Positions 54,168-63,985 of a stretch of 64,000 nucleotides of DNA are shown piece after piece; the first letter of the stretch is position 1; each line of letters opens with the position of its first letter. Origin of the DNA: Patescibacteria group bacterium (GTDB lineage Bacteria > Patescibacteriota > UBA1384 > 2-12-FULL-50-11); assembly GCA_016861245.1 (NCBI GenBank), contig BOKZ01000001.1, positions 77,107-141,106 of the forward strand, written 5' to 3'. A model generated the notes under the pieces. It saw only the letters and a program-made list of their open reading frames with translations, did no database searches and was not told the origin of the DNA. Position numbers and translations under genes: made by a program.

Positions 54168-56441
54168 TTAAATTTTACCGTCTACGGATTCGGCGATAAT
54201 TGTCGGTACGTCTTTGGTGCCAACTTCAATTTGCGCTTCGGTAATTGGCTTCTCTAAGATTGCCCCTTCAAGCTGTTTCGGCGCTTCTTTCAATAGCGGA
54301 ATCTCAAAGATAAACTTCGAGCCCTTGCCCGCTTCGCTTTCAACCCAAATCTTACCCTTGTGCAACTCCACGAAGTTCTTGCCGATATACAGACCGAGTC
54401 CGGTTCCCTGGTGCTCGTCGATCTCACGCTTAACCTGAGAGAACTTCTGGAAAAGCTTCTTTTGATCTTCCTTGGCGATACCGCGACCGGTGTCGACAAC
54501 TGTCACCCGGATAAAATCGCCTTCGGATTTGCCGATGTTGATTGTCACTCCGCCTTTGTCAGTGAACTTTAACGCGTTACCGGTTAGATTAACGATTACT
54601 TCACGGATGCGGTCGGGATCGCACCAGAGTTTTGGCAAGCCTTTTTCCGCTTCGATCTTCAAGTAAATCTTTTTACTATCTGCTTTAATCTGCAACTCAT
54701 GCACTACGCTCTCGGCTAACTCAACCATGCTTACCTGGGAAAACTTCATCTTCAAACGGCCCTGCTCGATTCGGGAGACGTTCAAAAGGTCGAGAATCAG
54801 CTCAGCCAGACGTTTACTACTGGCGTACGCCCGAGATAGATACTCTTTGCTTTTAGCGTCGACTTTCCCCATCCCCTCGTCGAGAACCATCGAAAGATAG
54901 CCTTCAATCGCTGCTAACGGCGTATTGAGCTCGTGCGAAGCCATCGAGATAAACTCGTCCTTCATCTTGTCTAATTGGCTAAGGTATTCGTTAGCGTCTT
55001 TAAGCTTTTGGAACGCCTGAGCACGTTGAATCGCCAAGCTCATGTCGTCGGCAATGGCCTTAGCGATCTCCACGTCTTTCCCGTGGAGCCGACTTTTCTC
55101 GACCTTATAAACAAACATCATTACCCCAAGCGGCTCGCCGCTGGCATAAAGCGGCAGCGCTACTAAATGTTTGGCTCCGATCAAGCGCTGTAGCGTTTTT
55201 GCCACCGGACGACTAATCGGCGGACAGATAAACGCATCCAGACTGTCGCCCTCGACCATCTTTTTCTCGATGAGCACCTCGTGCAAACCATTAAACTCCT
55301 TCTTTATTGGGTAGCTATATTTTTCTAAATCCTCTCCTACTAGTGAGTAAACTTTGCGGGTAAAGGTGTTGGTCGAGACGGTATAGGCGACAAGGTGACC
55401 GCCGCGGACGATCGAAAGGAAGGCGCCAACGCAGTTTTCTAGTTGAACAGGGATTTCGTCGAGAATTTTCTGCGACATCGCCTTCATATCCATCTCATTC
55501 AGGACGATATCGGATACGCGCTGCAGCGCTGCTAAGCTTTTATTGCGTTGCTCAAGCTCTTTGAGAGTTTCAATTTTTTCCTTCGCTAACTTCTCTATTT
55601 CTTCCCTTTTATCAACTTCAGTTCGAACTGACTTAATAAGAACAATTCCGCCGACCGCAAGTGATAAAGTCAGGAGGCCTCCTGTGACTAATTGACTGCC
55701 TGAAAGTGCGATAGTCTGGACCAAGGCAATAGAAACCACAACACCAACTGCAACTTCTGTTAGCAAGACCTTAATGTTGAATAATCTGGTTTTTAAGATC
55801 GCATATGTAATAGAAATCGGAAAAGCAAGAACGAGTATGTTACCAACTGGTGGTATGTCGATGCCATACCACTGAGGATAGTTTGTTGCCCCACCCAACA
55901 ACCCTACGGTCGCCCCAATAATTAGATACTTTTCCTGCAGTAAATCTACCGCTTTTAACCCCGACTTTCTTGATAATAAGTAAATGGAGAAAACAAGGGC
56001 AGCAAAGAAGAAAACGAGAAAATATATATAAAAATCGCCAGCTATTGGCCAGAAAGTGAACCACCTATTTGGGGCGACTCGAGATATAAAGTTTTCGGAA
56101 ACAAGACTTGCATAGGCAAATGTTGTAGAAAGAATATAACCAGATATAACCGAAAATTTAAACTTTGGATATCTATTTATAAATAGTACAACAAAATGAA
56201 GGTAGAAGACCGGAATGAAGGCAGCCCCCAACATGAATACTTTTGCCCACAAAAGTGCAGCGGTCGGGTCGGTGGCCGAGAAGGAGTTATAGTAACCGAA
56301 TCCCCACACTGCCAGTGATAGACCCAAAAGACCAAACACCCTATTCACAGCAGCGATTGGGTTACTAAATACTACTAGTCCTCCTAGGGCTAGGCTTGCA
56401 ACTGCTATAATTAACCCTGTAAACGCGATGAGTTGTTGCAT
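54168..56441 (-). CDS. Sensor histidine kinase with an N-terminal 7TM sensor domain and a GAF-like region
   Basis: H-box SHELNTPLAAIEGYLSM, N box NLTGNALKFT, G1 DTGRGI, G2 GTGLGL. Confidence 0.9.
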   Translation of the reverse strand: MQQLIAFTGLIIAVASLALGGLVVFSNPIAAVNRVFGLLGLSLAVWGFGYYNSFSATDPTAALLWAKVFMLGAAFIPVFYLHFVVLFINRYPKFKFSVISGYILSTTFAYASLVSENFISRVAPNRWFTFWPIAGDFYIYFLVFFFAALVFSIYLLSRKSGLKAVDLLQEKYLIIGATVGLLGGATNYPQWYGIDIPPVGNILVLAFPISITYAILKTRLFNIKVLLTEVAVGVVVSIALVQTIALSGSQLVTGGLLTLSLAVGGIVLIKSVRTEVDKREEIEKLAKEKIETLKELEQRNKSLAALQRVSDIVLNEMDMKAMSQKILDEIPVQLENCVGAFLSIVRGGHLVAYTVSTNTFTRKVYSLVGEDLEKYSYPIKKEFNGLHEVLIEKKMVEGDSLDAFICPPISRPVAKTLQRLIGAKHLVALPLYASGEPLGVMMFVYKVEKSRLHGKDVEIAKAIADDMSLAIQRAQAFQKLKDANEYLSQLDKMKDEFISMASHELNTPLAAIEGYLSMVLDEGMGKVDAKSKEYLSRAYASSKRLAELILDLLNVSRIEQGRLKMKFSQVSMVELAESVVHELQIKADSKKIYLKIEAEKGLPKLWCDPDRIREVIVNLTGNALKFTDKGGVTINIGKSEGDFIRVTVVDTGRGIAKEDQKKLFQKFSQVKREIDEHQGTGLGLYIGKNFVELHKGKIWVESEAGKGSKFIFEIPLLKEAPKQLEGAILEKPITEAQIEVGTKDVPTIIAESVDGKI

Positions 56442-57451
56442 TAACCTTCTTTACGAAAGCTGCAAATCATATGTATTCCTATTGGCTCAGACACTAATTC
56501 GTAATCATAATAGCCGCTCTCAGCAAGGATCTTCCTGAACTCCTCCTCAGTTCTGTAAATCATCGGCCAATTCATTACGTATCTTAGAAAATACATTTCT
56601 CTATTTGGTTTAACCTGGCTAAAAATAATACTCCCGCCTGGTGCAAGTAATTCTTTTATCTTCTTTAGTAAGTTAACTGCCTTCTCTCTGTTTCTATATT
56701 CAAGGAACCCCACCATCTCGATAATATCTGGTCTATAGTTGCCTAGAAGTTTTTTCATATCAGTTGTACTCCCCACTATCATTTTGCAGCGATTAGCAAC
56801 GCCTAGCTCAGTTGCTAAGCTTTGCGCATAAGCCGACGCAGTAGGATCGAGATCAAGGAGTCTAAATTCGAAATTAACCTGATGTTTATCAACGACCTCA
56901 GCTAGTGTTTCTAATACTGCACGGGCAGATCCACTGGCTATCGATAGTAAGCGTATTGTATCTTGTGATTTTCTTCCTACAATTTCTCTACTCAGGATTT
57001 CCTTTGTTAATCTTAATCTGTTTCTAACAGCCTTAGCATTTTCAAGACCATTCCAGTAAAGAGCAATTCTATCGAGTGACATTTTTTTGGAGAGGTAGTT
57101 AGGCAGGTTGTATATTATTTCTAGTGCCCTCCAGCTATAAGCATTGTCTTTAACGTCACGACATATTTGGCTAATACCGTCAAACCAAAAACTGTTAGTC
57201 TTTAAATTCTTTCCCAAAAAACCTTTCTTAACCGCCGTGATCACTGTAATTATCCAAATAAATAGGATCCGGAATCCAAAGATCGAGGCTGACTTCTCAA
57301 ATTCGTCACCTCCTACACGTGTAGCTGAATTTTTATCCTTTAAAATCTCCGGGTATGACTCTCCCAAGAAATCCTGGTCTATAGGATTAAAAACTGCCTC
57401 ACCAGCGGTATTTTCGCTAATTCTTTCTACCATATGATATAAAAGTAACAT
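56441..57451 (-). CDS. Membrane-associated class I SAM-dependent methyltransferase-like protein, first gene of the two-component-system operon
   Basis: One TM. Motif I-like LLSIASGSARAVLE, FRLLDLDP, LLAPGGSIIFS. Its stop overlaps the histidine-kinase start by 1 nt. The true start may be the internal Met at 57433. Confidence 0.45.
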   Translation of the reverse strand: MLLLYHMVERISENTAGEAVFNPIDQDFLGESYPEILKDKNSATRVGGDEFEKSASIFGFRILFIWIITVITAVKKGFLGKNLKTNSFWFDGISQICRDVKDNAYSWRALEIIYNLPNYLSKKMSLDRIALYWNGLENAKAVRNRLRLTKEILSREIVGRKSQDTIRLLSIASGSARAVLETLAEVVDKHQVNFEFRLLDLDPTASAYAQSLATELGVANRCKMIVGSTTDMKKLLGNYRPDIIEMVGFLEYRNREKAVNLLKKIKELLAPGGSIIFSQVKPNREMYFLRYVMNWPMIYRTEEEFRKILAESGYYDYELVSEPIGIHMICSFRKEG

Positions 57452-57474: not shown

Positions 57475-58854
57475 ATGTCTCTATTCTGGTTTCAGTTTAT
57501 CGTTAGTGCTTTTTTGTTTTGGGTTGGTGTTTACTTGGTTAGTAGGAACATACGGAGCAAAACTGCTTGGGTCATTTTCTTTTTTCTTTTTAGTTTGAGT
57601 TGGTACATACTCGTCGTGGATGCGATTACCCCTCTTTTTACAGATGACCGACTCACCTCAGTATTCTTGTATCATCTTACGAATTGGTCATACATCTTGC
57701 CCATTCCATTGCTGCTCCATTTTGCCTTACTGGTAACACAGAATTACAAAAAATCTATATGGATACAACTATGGTTTATATATTTCATTGCTATTCTGCT
57801 CATAATACTCTCCAGTACTTCAAACCTAGTTATAGACTACAGTTCCCTATTAATTTCAGACGAGAGTTTTGGTGAGTTTTACAAGAGGGGCCCGTTATTT
57901 AATGCAATAGCACTAATCGTGGTATGGGCTATGTCTGCATCACTCTACGCCTACATAACTGCGCGCAGTAAAGTGAATGATAGTCGAAGGAGAGCTAAGT
58001 TTTTATTGCCCATCATTGCCTCTGTGCTCTACATTATTTCAGGGTTGTTTTTAGTCTATGTATATCAAACCGACAACTACTTCCTCGCCGTCTATTCAAC
58101 CTCACCCCTGCTTATTGTGCCTGTGTTCTTTATCGCAGTGTCGATTTTCCACTATGGCCTAATCTCCGACATTGAGGGGTTGTTTGAAATTAAAGAGTTT
58201 ATCTACTTGTCTTGCGCGATTGCCTTAATAACGTTATTACCAGCTATGGTTTTCAGCCAACATATTATTCCTGAAGTGGGTCGAAACGCTCAAGCAATAC
58301 TTGGTGCATTTGTGTTCTTTTATATCTTCTCTCACAGCTTCTACGATTGGTTCACAACTTTCTTAAGGGACTTACTATATAACACCGGAAAAGGATTCTC
58401 GCTAATTACCGATTCGGACGTCAGCAACTTAATAAAAGATTTTCATGTACCAGAAAAGCTAGAAGTAAATCCTCTAACTAAATTTAAAATAACGAAACAA
58501 GCTGCCGATAATGGAAAATTAGTAGACTCAGCCCAGGCTATTGTTCGTGAAGCGATCGAATACTTTAAACAGTCAGATTACCCAAGACGCACGAAGCAGA
58601 ATCTGAAATATCAAATACTTAAGATGTTAGCGCTCGACAGTGCTGAGGAGGGTCAGATTCTTTGGGAGTTGGGGTTCGACGGGTACCCGATGAAGATACT
58701 CGCCGGCGAGAACCAAACACGAAAGCCGTTATTTAGAATCGAGTCGATGAGCGATTATACAGCTACATCCCGAAACGCTTTCATTGCGTTAAAGAAAGAA
58801 GCAATCCACGACTTAGCATGGAGGCTAAGCTATCTGGAAAGACATTCCAATTAG
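57475..58854 (+). CDS. Orphan 7TM sensor-domain membrane protein (paralogue of the histidine-kinase N-terminus) with a C-terminal soluble domain of unknown function
   Basis: FLYHLTNWSYILPIPLLLHFALLVTQNYKK aligns with the kinase segment LLWAKVFMLGAAFIPVFYLHFVVLFINRYPK. About 8 TM. No HisKA/HATPase domain. Low GC. Confidence 0.6.
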   Translation: MSLFWFQFIVSAFLFWVGVYLVSRNIRSKTAWVIFFFLFSLSWYILVVDAITPLFTDDRLTSVFLYHLTNWSYILPIPLLLHFALLVTQNYKKSIWIQLWFIYFIAILLIILSSTSNLVIDYSSLLISDESFGEFYKRGPLFNAIALIVVWAMSASLYAYITARSKVNDSRRRAKFLLPIIASVLYIISGLFLVYVYQTDNYFLAVYSTSPLLIVPVFFIAVSIFHYGLISDIEGLFEIKEFIYLSCAIALITLLPAMVFSQHIIPEVGRNAQAILGAFVFFYIFSHSFYDWFTTFLRDLLYNTGKGFSLITDSDVSNLIKDFHVPEKLEVNPLTKFKITKQAADNGKLVDSAQAIVREAIEYFKQSDYPRRTKQNLKYQILKMLALDSAEEGQILWELGFDGYPMKILAGENQTRKPLFRIESMSDYTATSRNAFIALKKEAIHDLAWRLSYLERHSN

Positions 58855-58859
58855 TTCAA

Positions 58860-60029
58860 TTACTTATAAATAATTTTTGAAAGATTGCTTGGTGCGAATA
58901 TCTCAGAATATATCCTTCTGGTCATCTCTGGCGTGATATTTTTGAAACTAATCATATGTTCCTTGTAATTCAACTCTTTGCCTTCGTATAAAATATCGTC
59001 TAGCGCGTTACTGAAGTACTCACCATTGTTCTGTTGTATTTGTTTAAAATATTCACTATTTCTTCTCTTATGCTTTTCTATTACAGCCTTAGACAACCCC
59101 ATCTCTGATAAATGTTTCAGCGAGCTCATTAGTATATTTGTCGCTTCATCAACCACATGAGGCATACATACAATTGATATAACGGCTTGCCCATAACTAA
59201 GGCCTATCCAGTGATTGTAATCCAACGAGTAGACACCTAACTTTCGTAACATAAGGAACGGACTGTGTTTTGAATGTCCACGCAGCTCACGCAGTGCAAG
59301 GTTTACGGCTATTCTCTTCTCTCTTTCATCGCAGTACCCAAACGTTTTCATCGCCAAGTAAATTAGTACTTGTCCCTTAGCATCACTTGGTAATTCCTCA
59401 ACACTTTCAATGCGAGGTCCAACTGTCACGAAACTAGGAATGACACTTTTAGAATTATCTGGAAAGTTACTGCTAACCAAAGAAGAGATGTGGTGTCGAT
59501 CTTTTTTTGACAAACCGTTATATCCGACTATAACCGTGACTGGGCCTTGATTTATTATCCCCCGATGGTACTGTGCAAGCTCACCAAGCTGAAACCTAGG
59601 CACATTCTCGATCTCCCTATAAACACTACTATAATGTGCGAGCGTTTTCGTGAGCACACCTTGAAATAGCTTGTTGTATAACACCGCTTCACTGGATTTC
59701 ATTTCGTTGATTAACGCCTGCTTCTCGAAATTCAGCAATTCCTCTTGAGTAAAATCTGGCTTAGTGACATATAGCAAAAAATTTTCCAACTGCTTAAAAA
59801 GTTTTTTCTTTGTCGTATTCAGCGAGAACCACAGAAAGTCCCTATCGATGTATGCGTTAGTATCCAGATTGTAATGTTTCTGAAAAATCCCGCCGTTTAT
59901 ATAGTGGTCAAGTAGGTGACCAATCCCTTGATTATCCCTATTCTCGCTATCCCGGCCCGCATTGGTAAAAACGCGAATAAATACTTCATTGCTTTTTCGA
60001 GGTAGCCTTACAAAATGAATTTCAGTCAT
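58860..60029 (-). CDS. M16 (pitrilysin)-family peptidase-like protein with an HLLDH variant of the HxxEH zinc motif
   Basis: GIGHLLDHYINGG, then NLDTNAYIDRDFLWF, then EKQALINEM, which is the M16 N-terminal-domain motif order. Low-GC region. Confidence 0.55.
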   Translation of the reverse strand: MTEIHFVRLPRKSNEVFIRVFTNAGRDSENRDNQGIGHLLDHYINGGIFQKHYNLDTNAYIDRDFLWFSLNTTKKKLFKQLENFLLYVTKPDFTQEELLNFEKQALINEMKSSEAVLYNKLFQGVLTKTLAHYSSVYREIENVPRFQLGELAQYHRGIINQGPVTVIVGYNGLSKKDRHHISSLVSSNFPDNSKSVIPSFVTVGPRIESVEELPSDAKGQVLIYLAMKTFGYCDEREKRIAVNLALRELRGHSKHSPFLMLRKLGVYSLDYNHWIGLSYGQAVISIVCMPHVVDEATNILMSSLKHLSEMGLSKAVIEKHKRRNSEYFKQIQQNNGEYFSNALDDILYEGKELNYKEHMISFKNITPEMTRRIYSEIFAPSNLSKIIYK

Positions 60030-60051
60030 TAATTAGGAAAAATAGAAATCA

Positions 60052-60474
60052 TTACTTTTTCTTGAGAAACCATTTAATCGATTCACCTGGATAGCCGTAT
60101 ATTTCCCCAGTGCGGCAGACGTAACTTTCTCGGGACAATTTCCCGCTGCGATAACTCTGTATAACCCTATCCATTTCCCGCATCTTTTCTGCGGCGTCTT
60201 TCCTGTAGACATGTAGTAAGTATCTGTCTTCGCCATGCTTACTCAATGCAACTTCACAACCATACCCCTTAGCAAGTTGCTTTAGCTCTACAAAGCCTCC
60301 GTTACTAATATCGTTTCTATTAAGTCCAGTGTCTAGACATGCGATGTCTCTTGTTCTGTTTCTAATTAATAACGCATATACAACCAGCTGCCCGGCCAAA
60401 AAAGCCTGCCTATGTTCTCCATATTTATATCTTATAGGTTGCATATAATAATTATACTTGGTCGCCGTATCCAC
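60052..60474 (-). CDS. Hypothetical 140-aa basic protein
   Basis: GTG start. I recognise no motif. Low GC. Confidence 0.4.
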   Translation of the reverse strand: MDTATKYNYYMQPIRYKYGEHRQAFLAGQLVVYALLIRNRTRDIACLDTGLNRNDISNGGFVELKQLAKGYGCEVALSKHGEDRYLLHVYRKDAAEKMREMDRVIQSYRSGKLSRESYVCRTGEIYGYPGESIKWFLKKK

Positions 60475-60489
60475 CAGCGACCAAGCTGG

Positions 60490-60573
60490 TTACTCTTCGT
60501 AGCCACAGTTTGGGCAAACCCAACCGTCGTCATCCTCTATCATCTCTTCATCGCAATTCGGGCAATTCATCAT
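60490..60573 (-). CDS. 27-aa zinc-ribbon micro-protein (MMNCPNCDEEMIEDDDGWVCPNCGYEE)
   Basis: AGGAG lies 6 nt upstream of ATGATG. The pattern is CxxC-x14-CxxC. It falls below the ORF-track cutoff. Confidence 0.45.
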   Translation of the reverse strand: MMNCPNCDEEMIEDDDGWVCPNCGYEE

Positions 60574-60591
60574 AGTCTCCTGTAAGGTACT

Positions 60592-60609
60592 CAGGAAGTT
60601 TCCTTCCTG
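60592..60609. promoter_or_regulatory. Perfect inverted repeat CAGGAAG-tttc-CTTCCTG in the divergent intergenic region
   Basis: Seven-bp arms with a 4-nt spacer. It lies 19 nt upstream of the micro-ORF start and about 100 nt upstream of the nucleotidyltransferase gene. Confidence 0.35.
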
Positions 60610-60708
60610 GCAGCACGATCATCCAGGAGTTCGCCCAACTAAATCTATACCGGAACAGTACCGCAAGAGTATGGATCCAGTTGCATCTTACACTCGAAAA
60701 TGTCCTAG

Positions 60709-62103
60709 ATGAAACAGAAATTTGATTCCAAAAAAAGAATAGACGGCCATATATTACAGTCGGTTTTTCTGAGAGACTCGGATATCATTCCTCAGAGCCA
60801 ATACGTTGGTCTCGAATTAGCAAAATACTACTCATTAAACTTCCGCTTGACTGTTGAACACATTTACTACTCGCTTTACGCCAAATTCCCAGAGTGTAGG
60901 GTCGCTGTAGGTATATATGGCTCTGCGGGTCGTCAGGAAATGGCAGCATATTCGGACGCAGATGTCCTAATTATTACAGGAAGCGAATCGACACAAGAAA
61001 GAGAGTTTAGGAAGCAGTTCTCTATCGAGATGGCCAAGTTCGGCTATTCGAAGGTTGATATACCAGATTGGGGGACAATCAGGCTGCTGTCAAAGATTTG
61101 CTCAACCAACATTGTCGAAGGCAACCAAATACTCGAGTCTAAAATTGTGTGCGGTGATCCAAGCTTGATTAAGAGTTTTAGAGCTATGGTGAAGAAGCAA
61201 AATACACTAGAACGGTCCAAGCGAAACATTCTTTTTCAGCTGTTTTGCTATGACTATTACTACTCAAAGAGAAGAAAAAACGGTTATATTAATGTTAAAT
61301 ACTCGGCTGGCGGAACGAGGGACATATTATTTTTTATTTGGATCGCACGGCACACTGCAACCAGTGTAGGGATACAACCCCCGATTAGTATCACAAACTC
61401 ACTATCCCTACTTTTTGAGCATGGAAGTGTAAACAGATCAGAGTATGAAAAACTGTTACGCTCAATTTCAAACGTAATGTTGCTGCGTTCTGAAGCGCTC
61501 AAAATTAATAAAGGTACTGATTATAATGGGCTATCGCTTATAGAAACTAACTTACAATCACTACAAAAATCGACAACAATTCGGCACCTTTTCCCAGACA
61601 GCTCTTTCTACGAATTTACCGATTCAATGCGTACAATCGCAAAAATAAAGGAAAAGTTGGTGAATGGTTTTATTACTGAAAACTTTGGCTATAGAGGAAA
61701 GCTGATAATACGAGCAAGGCAGCAAGCTGCAAAGAACAAACTTCTTAAACCGCTTACCGACAACCGCCCAGAAATTATTCTGGCCAATTTATGGCTGATC
61801 GGAGAAAAGATTGACTCGCAAAAGTTACTACAGTCTATTAGTAAACAAAAACAGTGGAGCTGGGAATTCATGGCAAGTATGTTGAGCTTGAATGATCTTC
61901 CACAGTCAATTATTCATAGCATTACTGAATTCGTTCTTGGGAAAATGGAGTACGGCTACATACTTAAGCTAGTCGCTCAGCACCCACACACCTCAAAACA
62001 AACCTTGCGCTTGATATTGAATTCAAAAATAGATGAGCGCTACAAACAGTTGGCTAGGATAGCGAAGAGCGCTGGTAACTCTCAAACCAATTTCCAAGTA
62101 TGA
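60709..62103 (+). CDS. Pol-beta-superfamily nucleotidyltransferase-domain protein (GlnD/GlnE-like N-terminus) with a helical C-terminal domain
   Basis: VGIYGSAGRQEMAAYSDADVLII fits the GS...x9-13...DxD nucleotidyltransferase motif, as in GlnD GGYGR.EL...SDIDLL. Low GC. Confidence 0.55.
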   Translation: MKQKFDSKKRIDGHILQSVFLRDSDIIPQSQYVGLELAKYYSLNFRLTVEHIYYSLYAKFPECRVAVGIYGSAGRQEMAAYSDADVLIITGSESTQEREFRKQFSIEMAKFGYSKVDIPDWGTIRLLSKICSTNIVEGNQILESKIVCGDPSLIKSFRAMVKKQNTLERSKRNILFQLFCYDYYYSKRRKNGYINVKYSAGGTRDILFFIWIARHTATSVGIQPPISITNSLSLLFEHGSVNRSEYEKLLRSISNVMLLRSEALKINKGTDYNGLSLIETNLQSLQKSTTIRHLFPDSSFYEFTDSMRTIAKIKEKLVNGFITENFGYRGKLIIRARQQAAKNKLLKPLTDNRPEIILANLWLIGEKIDSQKLLQSISKQKQWSWEFMASMLSLNDLPQSIIHSITEFVLGKMEYGYILKLVAQHPHTSKQTLRLILNSKIDERYKQLARIAKSAGNSQTNFQV

Positions 62104-62690
62104 TGCGGATAATAATTGTTCGTCACGCAGAAACTGTTGAAAACAGAGATCGAGTCTTTCACGGACATAGCTACGGCGGCTTTACTGCTGAAGGCAAAGA
62201 GCAAGTAAGGATGTTGAGAAGACGCCTTGACAAGTATCGGTTTGATAAGGCACTGGTAAGTGATCTGGCAAGAACTAGGGAAACAGCTAAATACCTTCTT
62301 TCTGGAAGAACGCACATAATTCGGTATTTAAAGCTCCTCAGAGAAAAAGACGCTGGAGAATTTAAAGGAAAGAAGTTTGGGGAAGTAGTATGGGACAAAC
62401 TTGCTGGAGACTTTGAGACGAGAAAGCCCCCAGGTGGGGAGAGTATTAGTGATGTTCAGCAAAGAATAAGAGAGTTCTTAGCAATTTTAACCAGTGAGAA
62501 CGCTAGAGATTTACTTGTCGTTGGTCACGGCGCATTTATTAAATTGCTAATTGGGCAGCTGCGTGGGCAAAGCGCACAAGATGCAATTTTCTCTAATCAA
62601 ATCGACCATTGCTCAATTACAGAAATATTATTGAGCGATGGTCGCTTTGACGTAATAACTCAAAACGACACTCTGCACCTTAAGAGGTAA
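62100..62690 (+). CDS. Histidine phosphatase (phosphoglycerate-mutase-like branch)
   Basis: IIIVRHAETVEN is the RHG motif; also LARTRETA and VVGHGAFIKLL. It overlaps the nucleotidyltransferase gene by 4 nt. Confidence 0.75.
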   Translation: MMRIIIVRHAETVENRDRVFHGHSYGGFTAEGKEQVRMLRRRLDKYRFDKALVSDLARTRETAKYLLSGRTHIIRYLKLLREKDAGEFKGKKFGEVVWDKLAGDFETRKPPGGESISDVQQRIREFLAILTSENARDLLVVGHGAFIKLLIGQLRGQSAQDAIFSNQIDHCSITEILLSDGRFDVITQNDTLHLKR

Positions 62691-62693
62691 TAT

Positions 62694-63305
62694 ATGCCGA
62701 GAATAATCGCATTTGAGGGCGTCAGTGGCGCCGGGAAGACCACGTGTTGCAGGATAGTATCATCAATACTAGACAAAAGGGGCTTGAACATCCTACGAAT
62801 TAACGAGAAAGAGCACGAACCTCTTCGCTCGTACATCTCTGCTTGGCACAATCTTCCGCACGAAGAAAAGCTATTCACAGCTAGGAAGGTGAAGGAGATT
62901 GCTGAATGTAGAGCCGAGGTTCACGCTAGCCTAGCAGACAAAATTTCTGCAAGTAACATAGTCATCTTTGATCGATCTGTTTGGACTAGCATGGTTTACC
63001 AGTCGTTTGATGGTCAACAGCCGGAGGCAATACTATCAGCGAACGAGTGCGCGGGCGCTATTGTCCCCTCAGAGATATTCTTATTTATGGCTGACCCAGT
63101 GCTATGTGCTCGTCGAGTAATAGAACGAGCAAAAAGAAGAAGCACATATGGACTGCCAGCAACCATTGAGGACCATGAGAGTATCCTTCGCTCCTATGAG
63201 CAATACCGTAAAGTGTGCAAACACTTCCCAACTCTTCATCACATCAACGGCCAGTTGAGCATTCGTAAGAATGTTCGACAAGTTTTAAGGCTACTCGACC
63301 AGTAA
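62694..63305 (+). CDS. dTMP-kinase-like P-loop kinase
   Basis: IIAFEGVSGAGKTT matches the Tmk N-terminus; also FTARKV...IVIFDRSVWTSMVYQ. It starts 4 nt after the phosphatase stop. Confidence 0.6.
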   Translation: MPRIIAFEGVSGAGKTTCCRIVSSILDKRGLNILRINEKEHEPLRSYISAWHNLPHEEKLFTARKVKEIAECRAEVHASLADKISASNIVIFDRSVWTSMVYQSFDGQQPEAILSANECAGAIVPSEIFLFMADPVLCARRVIERAKRRSTYGLPATIEDHESILRSYEQYRKVCKHFPTLHHINGQLSIRKNVRQVLRLLDQ

Positions 63306-63309
63306 CCCC

Positions 63310-63331
63310 GCCCCTATTTGGGGCTTTTTTT
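63310..63331 (+). terminator. Rho-independent terminator (GCCCC-tattt-GGGGC plus T7)
   Basis: It follows the kinase stop. The stop codon of convergent plsC lies in the loop. Confidence 0.6.
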
Positions 63332-63985
63332 ATTTACGGGTAAATAATCGTGTTCGTAGTATAAATCCGCGATTTTTTGCATTATTTCTTGGGTAGCTCT
63401 GTACGTATTTTCATCGGAGAAATCTGGGTAATCTAAGTTGTTCAGGTAAAACGGTGTGCCAATACGAATAACAATCTTTGGGCGAGTCGCAATAAATCGC
63501 CACGGCGTTAAGCCGTGCGGTGTATGAAGCGAGATTGGCAAAAGCGCTGCCCGGGTAGTTAGCGCCAAAATCGCTGCGCCGCGTCGCCCCTCACCAAGCT
63601 TTGGTCGCTCAGGAATAATTTTTCCTTCTGGGAACAGAATAACGGAGCCGCCTTTTTCTAGGATTTTAGTTGGGGTTAGAAGCGACTTACCTATTCCTTG
63701 TTTGCGATGCGCTTTGAACGCCCCTAACAACCAAATAACTACATTTAATAACGGGATTCGGAACAGCTCGTTTTTCGCCATAAACCTTAGTGGATATAAC
63801 GACGGTCGATAAAGAAGCGCTACTCCTGTTAACTGCGGATCTAGATGACTCTCGTGATTAGACACAACGATAAATGGGCGCGACACCTCCTTAAGATTTT
63901 CTCTACCTATAATTTCAAAACGCGTAAATGTCTTTAAGAGTACCCAAGAAATAAACGCAGCGACGTACTGCGCCGTAGTCATCAT
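63314..63985 (-). CDS. plsC: 1-acyl-sn-glycerol-3-phosphate acyltransferase (PlsC family)
   Basis: VVSNHESHLDP is the HxxxxD motif; also ILFPEGKI. Confidence 0.7.
   Translation of the reverse strand: MMTTAQYVAAFISWVLLKTFTRFEIIGRENLKEVSRPFIVVSNHESHLDPQLTGVALLYRPSLYPLRFMAKNELFRIPLLNVVIWLLGAFKAHRKQGIGKSLLTPTKILEKGGSVILFPEGKIIPERPKLGEGRRGAAILALTTRAALLPISLHTPHGLTPWRFIATRPKIVIRIGTPFYLNNLDYPDFSDENTYRATQEIMQKIADLYYEHDYLPVNKKSPK

Follow-up and report, generated by a model that had tools for sequence, protein, structure and literature searches.

The window, that is, the whole stretch of 64,000 nucleotides that was analysed, originates from a Patescibacteria (CPR) MAG. Three plus-strand genes, encoding a nucleotidyltransferase (NT), a histidine phosphatase (HP), and a thymidylate-kinase paralog (TK), face three minus-strand genes across a divergent intergenic region (Table 1). 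What a sequence-only reading had observed here was confirmed, namely the six open reading frames, the 4-nt overlap between NT and HP, the 3-nt gap between HP and TK, and the low-GC setting (0.37–0.43 over 56–63 kb vs. ~0.48 elsewhere in the window). The plus-strand genes (60709–63305) probably form a single operon, and the hairpin directly 3' of TK is likely the end of this three-gene operon. A consensus scan of the intergenic region found no promoter above chance. The domain assignments of the triad made by the same reading agree with Pfam, which identifies GlnD_UR_UTase in NT (6.5e-6; 26.7 bits, over the 21-bit cutoff), His_Phos_1 in HP (6e-37), and Thymidylate_kin in TK (1.7e-17). Among its motifs, G-X11-D-X-D in NT, FEGVSGAGKTT and FDRS in TK, and HLLDH and CPNC...CPNC on the minus strand are present, whereas HP reads RHAE and not the literal RHG.

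Table 1. Coordinates of the genes and other features at the locus, numbered within the window
Feature	Position	Strand	Description
M16-like protein, GHLLDH	58860..60029	-	389 aa; Peptidase_M16; neighbour, outside cassette
Orphan protein	60052..60474	-	140 aa; ORF; neighbour, outside cassette
Zn-ribbon micro-ORF, MMNCPNC...CPNCGYEE	60490..60573	-	27 aa; neighbour, outside cassette
Divergent intergenic region with 7+7 inverted repeat	60574..60708	.	135 nt; putative triad promoter region
NT, GlnE/GlnD/DrrA-class Pol-beta nucleotidyltransferase (predicted)	60709..62103	+	464 aa; ORF + Pfam
HP, histidine phosphatase (branch 1)	62100..62690	+	196 aa; His_Phos_1
TK, thymidylate-kinase paralog (predicted)	62694..63305	+	203 aa; Thymidylate_kin
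Intrinsic-terminator-like hairpin + T-run	63306..63332	+	GCCCCTATTTGGGGC then TTTTTTTATT

NT comprises one NT domain, the HEPN-derived GlnD_UR_UTase helical domain, and a C-terminal α-helical domain of ~170 aa. Its motif YGSAGRQEMAAYSDAD corresponds to G-X11-D-X-D, and further Pfam matches are DUF294 (1e-4) and, weakly, NTP_transf_2. In an alignment of five sequences, G71, S72, D83, D85, D117, VEGNQ at 136–140, and K197/G201/G202/R204/D205 are invariant. The best Foldseek PDB matches of the AF2 model (pLDDT 81, pTM 0.81) are GlnE (1v4a, 2e-5; 3k7d) and DrrA (6yx5_B), with TM-scores of only ~0.45, compared with E ~1 for CutA/Cid1. Since GlnE and DrrA are on top in Foldseek, the motifs are present, and GlnD_UR_UTase exceeds the Pfam cutoff, NT is assigned to the GlnE/GlnD/DrrA class of nucleotidyltransferases; its active site is complete. 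Its relatives form ~5 clusters among 5.8e9 proteins, and 263 matches were found among 1.84e9 representatives.

GlnE, GlnD, and the Legionella AMPylase DrrA/SidM all modify their targets, metabolic or signalling proteins, by nucleotidylylation of a tyrosine in a loop. NT shares with them the Pol-beta fold and the HEPN-derived helical domain after the NT domain, including the K..GG.RD motif; the HEPN-derived GlnD_UR_UTase clan has been described (PMC3710099). In contrast, NT has neither the second AR/AT domain of GlnE, nor the HD/ACT domains of GlnD, nor the GEF/P4M domains of DrrA. The C-terminal helical domain and the VEGNQ motif are unique to NT, its linked genes encode a kinase and a phosphatase instead of GS or PII, and its carriers are DPANN archaea and CPR bacteria. 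The resemblance of NT extends to aminoglycoside nucleotidyltransferases, and there are weak sequence and structure matches to MntA-HepT type VII toxin-antitoxin and minimal NTase modules. MntA is a Pol-beta NTase that AMPylates its partner protein; NT, on the other hand, belongs to the GlnE class and has four times the size.

The catalytic core of HP is intact, and all 20 family members compared have its residues R8, H9, R58, E82, and H143. In the PDB, HP is closest to CobC, PhoE, PspA, and TIGAR, and PFKFB structures were matched too. CobC, the alpha-ribazole-5'-phosphate phosphatase, is the best-scoring characterised relative, but HP has its own motifs (REKxxG, GTFETRK, HCS). A CobC-type housekeeping role, raised by the sequence-only reading as the option that would speak against its own proposal, is not supported, as HP reaches 112.8 bits against the TIGR03162 cutoff of 162.9 bits and no cobamide genes were found among the annotated neighbours.

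TK is homologous to Tmk (TIGR00041/PF02223) over its full length, and its family profile matches only Tmk structures in this way (best 9e-23). The P-loop, D93-R94, the LID arginines R141/R145, the conserved C-terminal Tyr, and an Arg aligned with the dTMP-contacting Arg of Tmk are retained. In contrast to Tmk, TK scores 62 bits with TIGR00041, below the equivalog cutoff of 83.25 bits, the acidic P-loop residue of EGxDGxGK occurs in 0 of 68 TK sequences, and the base-stacking Phe position is aliphatic in most of these. The LID loop has an insertion of ~10 aa with a near-invariant tyrosine, Tyr152 (61/68). TK is duplicated in some cassettes, and each of the six copies without this loop adjoins a second TK that retains it; at locus L034, the LID loop of TK differs and contains no such Tyr. 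On sequence grounds, TK is a divergent Tmk paralog that keeps all phosphoryl-transfer residues and in which the acceptor pocket is remodelled and the LID loop is specific to the family. At the one locus checked in this respect (L030), another Tmk-like gene with canonical EGxDGxGK/DRY lies 8 kb from the triad.

NT, HP, and TK occur together in more than 60 loci of ultra-small symbiotic organisms, DPANN archaea for the most part and CPR bacteria in a few cases, with a patchy distribution across both domains. The triad is adjacent and co-directional in ~45 of ~65 loci, and most of the remaining loci end at contig ends. HP and TK flank NT in each of the four distant contexts and in 15 of 16 further species-representative loci with both flanks present and an intact NT, as well as in ~30 of the metagenome loci with sufficient flanking sequence. 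The proposal that the triad is one unit held when relatives were checked for split or absent triads, as the three genes remain adjacent at 25–39% identity in both domains of life. The triad is a genuine functional unit and not an accidental linkage. The genes come in three orders that are cyclic permutations of a single arrangement, and each order forms a monophyletic group in the NT tree; gene order follows NT phylogeny and thus indicates mostly vertical descent. The cassette is self-contained and set in unrelated contexts, most of the genes annotated around it have housekeeping roles (thermosome, aIF2-gamma, ribosomal P0, and tRNA synthetases), and no fourth gene family recurs across the cassette clades. 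No paper describing the NT-HP-TK cassette was found in the literature, and the three-enzyme cassette is previously undescribed.

Both accessory genes can be replaced. A HAD phosphatase takes the place of HP in L061, L063, and L082, and an APH-fold kinase together with an HP::P-loop-kinase fusion takes the place of TK in L024. Given this non-orthologous displacement in both accessory slots, the selected combination is a kinase, a nucleotidyltransferase, and a phosphomonoesterase. Like PFK-2/FBPase-2 and PNKP-type enzymes, the cassette pairs a P-loop kinase with a histidine phosphatase (fused in L024) or a HAD, which suggests two phosphoryl steps on one substrate, either opposing or successive. 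In contrast, the domain order of the L024 fusion is the reverse of that in PFKFB, the kinase resembles Tmk and not 6PF2K or PNK, attachment of a GlnE-type NTase is obligatory, and a ligase is absent. Nudix, SAM-dependent methyltransferase, and second TK genes join the cassette in at least six loci, and Nudix is also found in L017; these additions share a nucleotide theme.

The explanation tentatively preferred is a self-contained cassette, independent of the minus-strand genes, with a TK/HP cycle gated by NT nucleotidylylation. TK and HP would act against each other, as kinase and phosphatase, on a nucleoside-5'-phosphate-like substrate, in a cycle of the PFK-2/FBPase-2 or dNMP-kinase/nucleotidase type, and NT would move NMP from NTP onto a hydroxyl and so couple this cycle to a signal. 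The favoured version is GlnE-style covalent control, in which NT would nucleotidylylate Tyr152 in the TK LID loop and the modification would tune nucleotide salvage in organisms unable to make nucleotides de novo. Against the Tyr152 model, HP and HAD are monoesterases, so erasure of a Tyr-NMP diester is not obvious. Moreover, L024 has no Tmk-like TK and HP is exchanged for HAD elsewhere, which speaks against a target of NT that is strictly one of the two partners and favours a shared third substrate. The Tyr-less LID loop of L034 also counts against the model. The GlnE-like motifs mainly concern NTP binding and do not fix the acceptor, the Foldseek TM-scores of NT are low, and the median pI of the family is uninformative. 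In general terms, the preferred guess is a kinase/phosphatase pair on a nucleotide-like substrate that GlnE-type NMP transfer by NT would gate or consume. Among the roles suggested by the sequence-only reading, whose interpretation is partly supported overall, nucleotide-pool manipulation, a protein nucleotidylation cycle, and end-healing are live candidates for the triad.

Nucleic-acid end healing and extension, as in tRNA/RNA repair or a cap-like 5' structure, is rather unlikely. Here TK would phosphorylate 5' ends or convert 5'-P to 5'-PP, HP or HAD would remove a 3'- or 2',3'-cyclic phosphate, and NT would add one or more nucleotides to the 3'-OH. A P-loop kinase with a HAD phosphatase is the architecture of T4 and mammalian PNKP, and both the HAD replacement and the HP::P-loop-kinase fusion exist. 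In the sister clade, the partners are a second small NTase and enzymes of the MBL (RNase Z-like) and EEP folds, both of them classic in 3'-end processing. In Tmk an acidic residue touches the 3'-OH of dTMP; TK is without it, and a 3'-substituted nucleotide could therefore fit. The Nudix and methyltransferase of the extended form and the tRNA gene that abuts the cassette in three lineages point the same way. However, the full-length likeness of TK is to Tmk and its similarity to the PNK-type AAA_33 family is marginal (4.7e-4), and NT groups with GlnE/GlnD/DrrA and not with CCA-adding, poly(A), or terminal-uridylyl transferases. Ligase, RtcB, and Hen1 are all absent nearby, the family is not unusually basic (median pI equal to background), and no histidine phosphatase is known to us to work as an RNA 3'-phosphatase. 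Low probability is also given to a three-step small-molecule pathway (kinase, nucleotidyltransferase, phosphatase) for the synthesis or salvage of a metabolite that contains a nucleotide or is activated by one, following the logic of CobU/CobC in the cobamide nucleotide loop, HddA/HddC/GmhB, or MupP/AmgK/MurU, with one substrate shared by NT, TK, and HP. Displacement of HP by HAD and of a Tmk-like by an APH-fold kinase is typical of metabolic pathways with a common small substrate, the closest characterised relatives of HP (CobC, PhoE, and PspA) are small-molecule phosphatases, the likeness of NT to aminoglycoside nucleotidyltransferases agrees with such a role, and genome-reduced symbionts rely on salvage. 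On the contrary, the metabolite-activating NTases known to us are Rossmann-type and not GlnE-type, there is no recurrent gene for a transferase, a transporter, or another pathway step, cobamide, heptose, and murein genes were not found among the annotated neighbours, and the large C-terminal helical domain points to a macromolecule as the partner of NT.

A mobile conflict module is distinctly improbable, whether as anti-virus defence or as a type VII-like toxin-antitoxin, with NT as a toxin/effector under phosphorylation/dephosphorylation control or with nucleotide-pool manipulation during infection. The patchy distribution, the self-contained cassette in unrelated contexts, the low-GC, strain-variable island around the window copy, the abutting tRNA genes, the IS200 and DDE transposases near some cassettes, and weak matches of NT to MntA and PDC-S09 and of TK to PDC-M51B and VakA would fit it. 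However, the neighbours are mostly housekeeping and not defence genes, gene order tracks NT phylogeny, and NT has no HEPN Rx4-6H toxin partner, its partners being a kinase and a phosphatase in place of the HEPN RNase of MntA-HepT. The anti-phage, toxin-immunity, and peptide-maturation roles suggested earlier were not upheld: the window genes have no significant match to PADLOC defence profiles, NT matches no PHROG, and no viral contig with the cassette was found. The earlier view that all six genes form one horizontally acquired module is extremely improbable and effectively refuted by comparative context. The two arms are divergent, lie in the low-GC region, and share the intergenic region with its inverted repeat CAGGAAGtttcCTTCCTG (7+7 nt, 60592–60609), which is unique in the window. 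Against this, M16-like, 140-aa, and Zn-ribbon genes are missing next to the triad at all of the ~65 other loci, and M16-like homologs occur in contexts without the triad (L036–L038). The repeat called operator-like exists, but an operator role is unsupported because it is limited to strains of this organism and lies upstream of no other triad.

The minus-strand genes are local cargo unrelated to the cassette; their arm sits in a strain-variable island, and the adjoining cargo differs among close strains. The M16-like protein matches Peptidase_M16 (1.8e-6), and in its family an invariant HLLDH replaces HxxEH. The 140-aa protein has no family match in family-profile searches, and a search of 5.8 billion proteins returned nothing beyond the cluster of its own species. 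The 27-aa ORF is called as a gene in none of the contig annotations and has generic Zn-ribbon Pfam matches, all below cutoff. It is preceded by AGGAG 3 nt upstream of its ATG, and a 12-bp hairpin (60456–60486) lies between it and the 140-aa ORF.

The three plus-strand genes of the window encode NT (a Pol-beta nucleotidyltransferase of the GlnE/GlnD/DrrA class), HP (a histidine phosphatase), and TK (a thymidylate kinase paralog). The sequence-only reading had regarded them as a functional set, and the triad is indeed a real module: HP and TK stay beside NT in distant relatives of both domains. NT relatives form five clusters among 5.8 billion proteins, and a scan of 1.84 billion representatives with an NT HMM gave 263 matches at E<=1e-3, with 52 at E<=1e-30. 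In each of the four distant contexts (29-39 % identity), NT is flanked by homologs of HP and TK; one of the four is a Nanoarchaeota contig with a permuted gene order. One genome per GTDB species was scanned, which gave 20 loci with NT, the window's own contig included. Seventeen are labelled archaeal (Woese-, Pace-, and Nanoarchaeota, and three labelled Methanosarcinales), and the remaining three come from the MAG of the window itself, a Paceibacterota, and a Saccharibacteria. A metagenome scan contributed 45 further loci. In loci that extend to both sides, the triad is nearly always contiguous and transcribed in one direction. The order NT-HP-TK is found in the clade holding the window, TK-NT-HP in most archaea, and HP-TK-NT in one derived archaeal clade; these three can be converted into one another by rotation of a single cyclic order, and in a rough neighbor-joining tree of NT each forms a monophyletic group. 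Clustering of ~680 neighboring ORFs revealed no fourth family, such as a possible target, recurring across the cassette clades; only Nudix and methyltransferase genes recur, within one subclade. Full-text literature searches found no description of the cassette, which unites a GlnE-class nucleotidyltransferase with new and conserved enzyme partners.

Coordinates of the six window genes and of related features in the window and at homologous loci (L0xx)
Feature	Locus	Coordinates	Strand	Remarks
M16-like	window	58860-60029	-	389 aa; GHLLDH
Unknown ORF	window	60052-60474	-	140 aa
Micro-ORF	window	60490-60573	-	27 aa; CPNC...CPNC
NT	window	60709-62103	+	464 aa; YGS-X10-DAD
HP	window	62100-62690	+	196 aa; overlaps NT by 4 nt
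TK	window	62694-63305	+	203 aa; 3-nt gap after HP
Hairpin	window	60456-60486	-	12-bp stem
Inverted repeat	window	60592-60609		7+7
Methyltransf_20 gene	window	56441-57451
7TM protein	window	57475-58854	+	459 aa
ThiF + FeeM-like	L001/L004/L005	5444-6740		strain counterpart of Methyltransf_20
7TM homolog	L011	3293-3655	-
NT-HP-APH-(HP::P-loop kinase)	L024	4020-7928
Extended form	L020	7630-11908		TKa to HP
Extended form	L029, L053, L071, L074, L085
Sister-clade sets	L039, L042/L043, L044
NT split by Y1 transposase	L082	3454-5315
NT probably split by IS200	L033	9043-10344
Second Tmk-like gene	L030	1067-1645	-
Abutting tRNA gene	L022	4242-4325
Abutting tRNA gene	L064, L077
Abutting tRNA gene	L017	7448-7531
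Abutting tRNA gene	L072	3049-3131
Second nucleotide-centered cluster	L038	3218-7426	-	beside M16-like homolog

All six ORFs and the accompanying features lie where the sequence-only reading had placed them, and profile searches agree with its domain calls for NT, HP, TK, and the M16-like protein. NT has Pfam matches to GlnD_UR_UTase, DUF294, and NTP_transf_2. In a five-sequence alignment, G71-X11-D83-A-D85 and the third carboxylate D117 are invariant and conform to the Pol-beta motif G-X11-[DE]-X-[DE]; N195-x-K197-Y-x-x-G201-G-T-R-D205, which resembles the K..GG.RD of the GlnD/GlnE helical domain, and a family-specific VEGNQ motif are invariant as well. The PF08335 helical domain is matched at residues 193-261 with 26.7 bits against a 21-bit cutoff; the GlnD/GlnE-type helical domain is a member of the HEPN-derived KNTase_C clan (PMC3710099). 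A C-terminal helical domain of ~170 aa, ending in GYILK..AQHPNTSK.TL, is also conserved in the sister clade of NT. The AF2 model of NT is confident (pLDDT 81, pTM 0.81), and the solved structures that match it best are both halves of GlnE (1v4a at 2e-5; 3k7d) and Legionella DrrA (6yx5_B). Lower-ranked matches comprise aminoglycoside nucleotidyltransferases, HalB, and MntA, with RNA tailing enzymes at E about 1. In contrast to GlnD and GlnE orthologs, NT has a single nucleotidyltransferase domain and lacks both the HD and ACT domains of GlnD and the tandem AR/AT nucleotidyltransferase domains of GlnE, and with the GlnD equivalog models it reaches ~32-34 bits, the cutoffs being 519-1299 bits. 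NT therefore has the fold and motifs of the GlnE/GlnD/DrrA class and is an ortholog of none of them. Remote NT-like domains also occur inside giant proteins of 4223, 2924, and 5747 aa (in the set P0113, P0127, P0134, P0118); P0127 combines radical SAM, B12-binding, APH kinase, and NT-like domains, and P0118 has an NT-like domain fused to a NAGPA phosphodiester glycosidase. The 863-aa relative P0100 was considered as a Rosetta-stone TK-NT-HP fusion and dismissed, as only NT domains are detectable in it and its neighbors differ.

HP belongs to PF00300 (His_Phos_1, 6e-37). Because R8, H9, R58, E82, and H143 are invariant in all 20 sequences, accounting for the RH(G/A) nucleophile, the second Arg and His, and the acid-base Glu, HP is predicted to be an active histidine phosphatase of branch 1. 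Its own motifs include REKxxG and GTFETRK. A CobC identity was rejected at 112.8 bits against the 162.9 cutoff of TIGR03162, and no cobamide genes that would indicate cobalamin salvage are found among the annotated neighbors.

The TK family profile matches only thymidylate kinases, over the full length (9e-23), and TK itself matches Thymidylate_kin in Pfam at 1.7e-17 against 4.7e-4 for the PNK-type AAA_33. The window TK scores 62 bits against the 83.25 cutoff of TIGR00041, and five other family members tested one by one score 66-80 bits, also below it. Of the 68 sequences, 64-68 retain the P-loop residues G9, G14, and K15, together with D93, R94, and the LID residues R141 and R145. In Tmk, contact with the dTMP 3'-OH is made by the acidic residue of EGxDGxGK, and a Phe stacks on the base. 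The acidic residue is absent from the family, with V, T, R, S, I, or A at position 11 and D/E in none of the 68 sequences, and at position 69, the stacking-Phe site, 55 sequences have I, L, or V and 11 have F. A LID insertion of ~10 residues carrying Tyr152 is present in 61/68 sequences, and each of the six loop-less copies adjoins a second TK that keeps the loop. As judged from these alignments, TK is a Tmk paralog with a predicted remodelled acceptor site. The comparison with a housekeeping Tmk of the same genome covers one locus, L030, where a second Tmk-like gene, whose EGCDGTGKT and DRY motifs are canonical, is found 8 kb away from the triad and scores 61.8 bits, below the TIGR00041 cutoff. 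Invariant and conserved residues thus show predicted intact catalytic sites in NT, HP, and TK.

Variant cassettes indicate which activities are kept. A HAD phosphatase occupies the HP slot in L061, L063, and L082 (PF00702 4e-16 and 9.5e-17), and L024 has NT, HP, an APH-fold kinase, and a 407-aa fusion of HP with a P-loop kinase, with no Tmk-like gene. In L024, the kinase and the fusion take the place of TK. Either accessory slot can thus accommodate an unrelated fold of the same predicted activity, and such non-orthologous displacements show that selection keeps the activities of a kinase, a GlnE-class nucleotidyltransferase, and a phosphomonoesterase. An extended form, TKa-SAM methyltransferase-Nudix-TKb-NT-HP, is present in at least six loci; its TKb has lost the LID tyrosine loop and its TKa has kept it. 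A Nudix gene follows HP in L017. The NT sister clade (E about 1e-20 to 1e-36) resides in parallel three-gene sets of a small KNTase-like nucleotidyltransferase (~236 aa), NT, and a third enzyme, which is either a metallo-beta-lactamase of RNase Z/Apyc1 type or an EEP phosphoesterase. In L082, NT is split by an IS200-type Y1 transposase (PF01797 6e-33), and the cassette is therefore inactivated in that lineage; the NT of L033 is probably split by an IS200 transposase too.

The preferred model, which includes a claim on the cassette as a whole and is held tentatively at somewhat less than an even chance, is that a nucleoside-5'-phosphate-like substrate would be phosphorylated by TK and dephosphorylated by HP in opposition to each other, and that NT would couple the two enzymes to a signal through NMP transfer. 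The fusion of HP with a kinase is reminiscent of PFK-2/FBPase-2. In its most attractive version, NT would nucleotidylylate the exposed LID Tyr152 of TK, the sole candidate nucleotidylylation site found. GlnE modifies Tyr397 of GS, GlnD modifies Tyr51 of PII, and DrrA modifies Tyr77 of Rab1, and the modification of TK by NT would parallel all three. Such control would suit organisms dependent on nucleotide salvage. Weighing against the model, HP and HAD are monoesterases and not obvious erasers of a Tyr-NMP diester, the Tmk-like TK is missing from L024, and the GlnE-like motifs do not specify the acceptor. A new covalent-nucleotidylylation switch is rated as rather doubtful: NT would modify the LID Tyr in a dedicated NMP-kinase paralog, or else a substrate (RNA or protein) common to the three enzymes, and would control nucleotide salvage in obligate episymbionts. 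It would be the first GlnE/DrrA-type AMPylation/UMPylation system in archaea, and inter-domain transfer would account for its presence in CPR bacteria as well.

Among the other explanations, the healing of RNA or DNA ends with extension or capping is unlikely. It would agree with the PNKP-like logic of a kinase and HAD, the RNase Z and EEP partners of NT in the sister clade, and the loss from TK of the 3'-OH-contacting residue of Tmk, whereas a Tmk-like TK and a GlnE-class NT speak against it. The charge of the family is uninformative on nucleic-acid binding. HAD or HP phosphatases are present, and no ligase was seen among the neighbors examined. A small-molecule pathway running from kinase to nucleotidyltransferase to phosphatase is given the same low probability. 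Least probable of these three is a mobile conflict module. The patchy distribution, the nearby transposases, and the tRNA genes abutting the cassette in three lineages would fit it, but catalogue and viral searches give no support: the best matches in PADLOC-DB v2 (1e-5 to 1e-4) are single proteins of candidate systems, with no complete system, and NT had no match in PHROGs and was not found in IMG/VR viral contigs. Anti-phage defense, a candidate role in the sequence-only reading, was not borne out, as none of these three resources gave anything significant. The tRNA gene, which adjoins the end of the cassette, is tRNA-Leu(CAA) in one lineage and tRNA-Ser in two; its position could mark a site of integration or hint at function.

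DPANN archaea and CPR/Patescibacteria, which account for a large part of microbial diversity, are host-dependent and lack de novo nucleotide synthesis, and the majority of their accessory genes are functionally uncharacterized. The cassette is rare, with relatives in a few hundred of 1.8 billion protein clusters, tightly conserved, nucleotide-centered, and restricted to these two ultra-small symbiont radiations. It is a cloneable handle on how their cells process scavenged nucleotides or nucleic acids, and would carry GlnE/DrrA-type nucleotidyl transfer into archaea with a new partner set. Since the exchanges of HP for HAD and of the Tmk-like kinase for APH/P-loop kinases define the required chemistry, the function is testable with three small soluble proteins.

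The minus-strand arm is not part of this cassette. The view that both arms form one horizontally acquired six-gene module with a shared operator is rejected because the M16-like, 140-aa, and Zn-ribbon genes are near no other triad, M16 homologs with the invariant HLLDH are found in other contexts without a triad, the 140-aa protein is an orphan, and the 7+7 inverted repeat, present as a single copy in the window, is confined to the window's species. The M16-like protein has a fold-level Pfam match to Peptidase_M16 (28.4 bits vs the 22.3 cutoff, 1.8e-6) and lacks the HxxEH zinc-binding/catalytic motif, HLLDH being invariant in 6/6 family members. Peptide maturation was proposed as well, and a RiPP set was discarded: neither precursor nor maturase lies beside the M16-like gene, which relatives carry alone. 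The minus-strand genes are ordinary lineage-specific island cargo. Between the 27-aa Zn-ribbon ORF and the 140-aa ORF is a hairpin with a 12-bp stem, which overlaps the start of the latter and could be a terminator or attenuator dividing the two. In L038, a second nucleotide-centered cluster next to an M16-like homolog comprises a radical SAM gene, a 162-aa ORF, a Tmk/AAA_28-like kinase, CYTH, and a 561-aa ORF.

The surroundings in the window are bacterial genes (PilM/PilN, an EPSP_synthase-family enzyme, a 7TM histidine kinase, IleRS, and HisRS), and an identical NT was assembled from numerous sequencing runs, in at least 24 contigs. The GC content is ~0.40 across 56-63 kb vs ~0.48 in the rest of the window. 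A terminator-like hairpin is located directly 3' of TK, and Rfam and tRNA scans of the window gave no matches. In strains of the same organism, the Methyltransf_20 gene is replaced by ThiF and a FeeM-like N-acyl synthase (acyltransferase), with the flanking histidine kinase, 7TM protein, and triad unchanged; this exchange is a strain-level cargo swap within the island. The more distant syntenic relative L036 lacks the triad and has other cargo between HisRS-IleRS and the 7TM kinase, namely RelB/YafQ, DLH hydrolase, M16-like, methyltransferase, ABC ATPase, PNP, radical-SAM enzyme, and HAD hydrolase genes. The strain swaps and the different cargo of L036 make the interval a variable island. The 7TM protein of the window ends in a conserved domain of ~120 aa that matches no Pfam family. 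In L011, a distant CPR relative, its homolog (phmmer 2e-60) lies directly downstream of the triad in convergent orientation, and the triad and the 7TM gene are therefore neighbors in two CPR lineages, in different arrangements.
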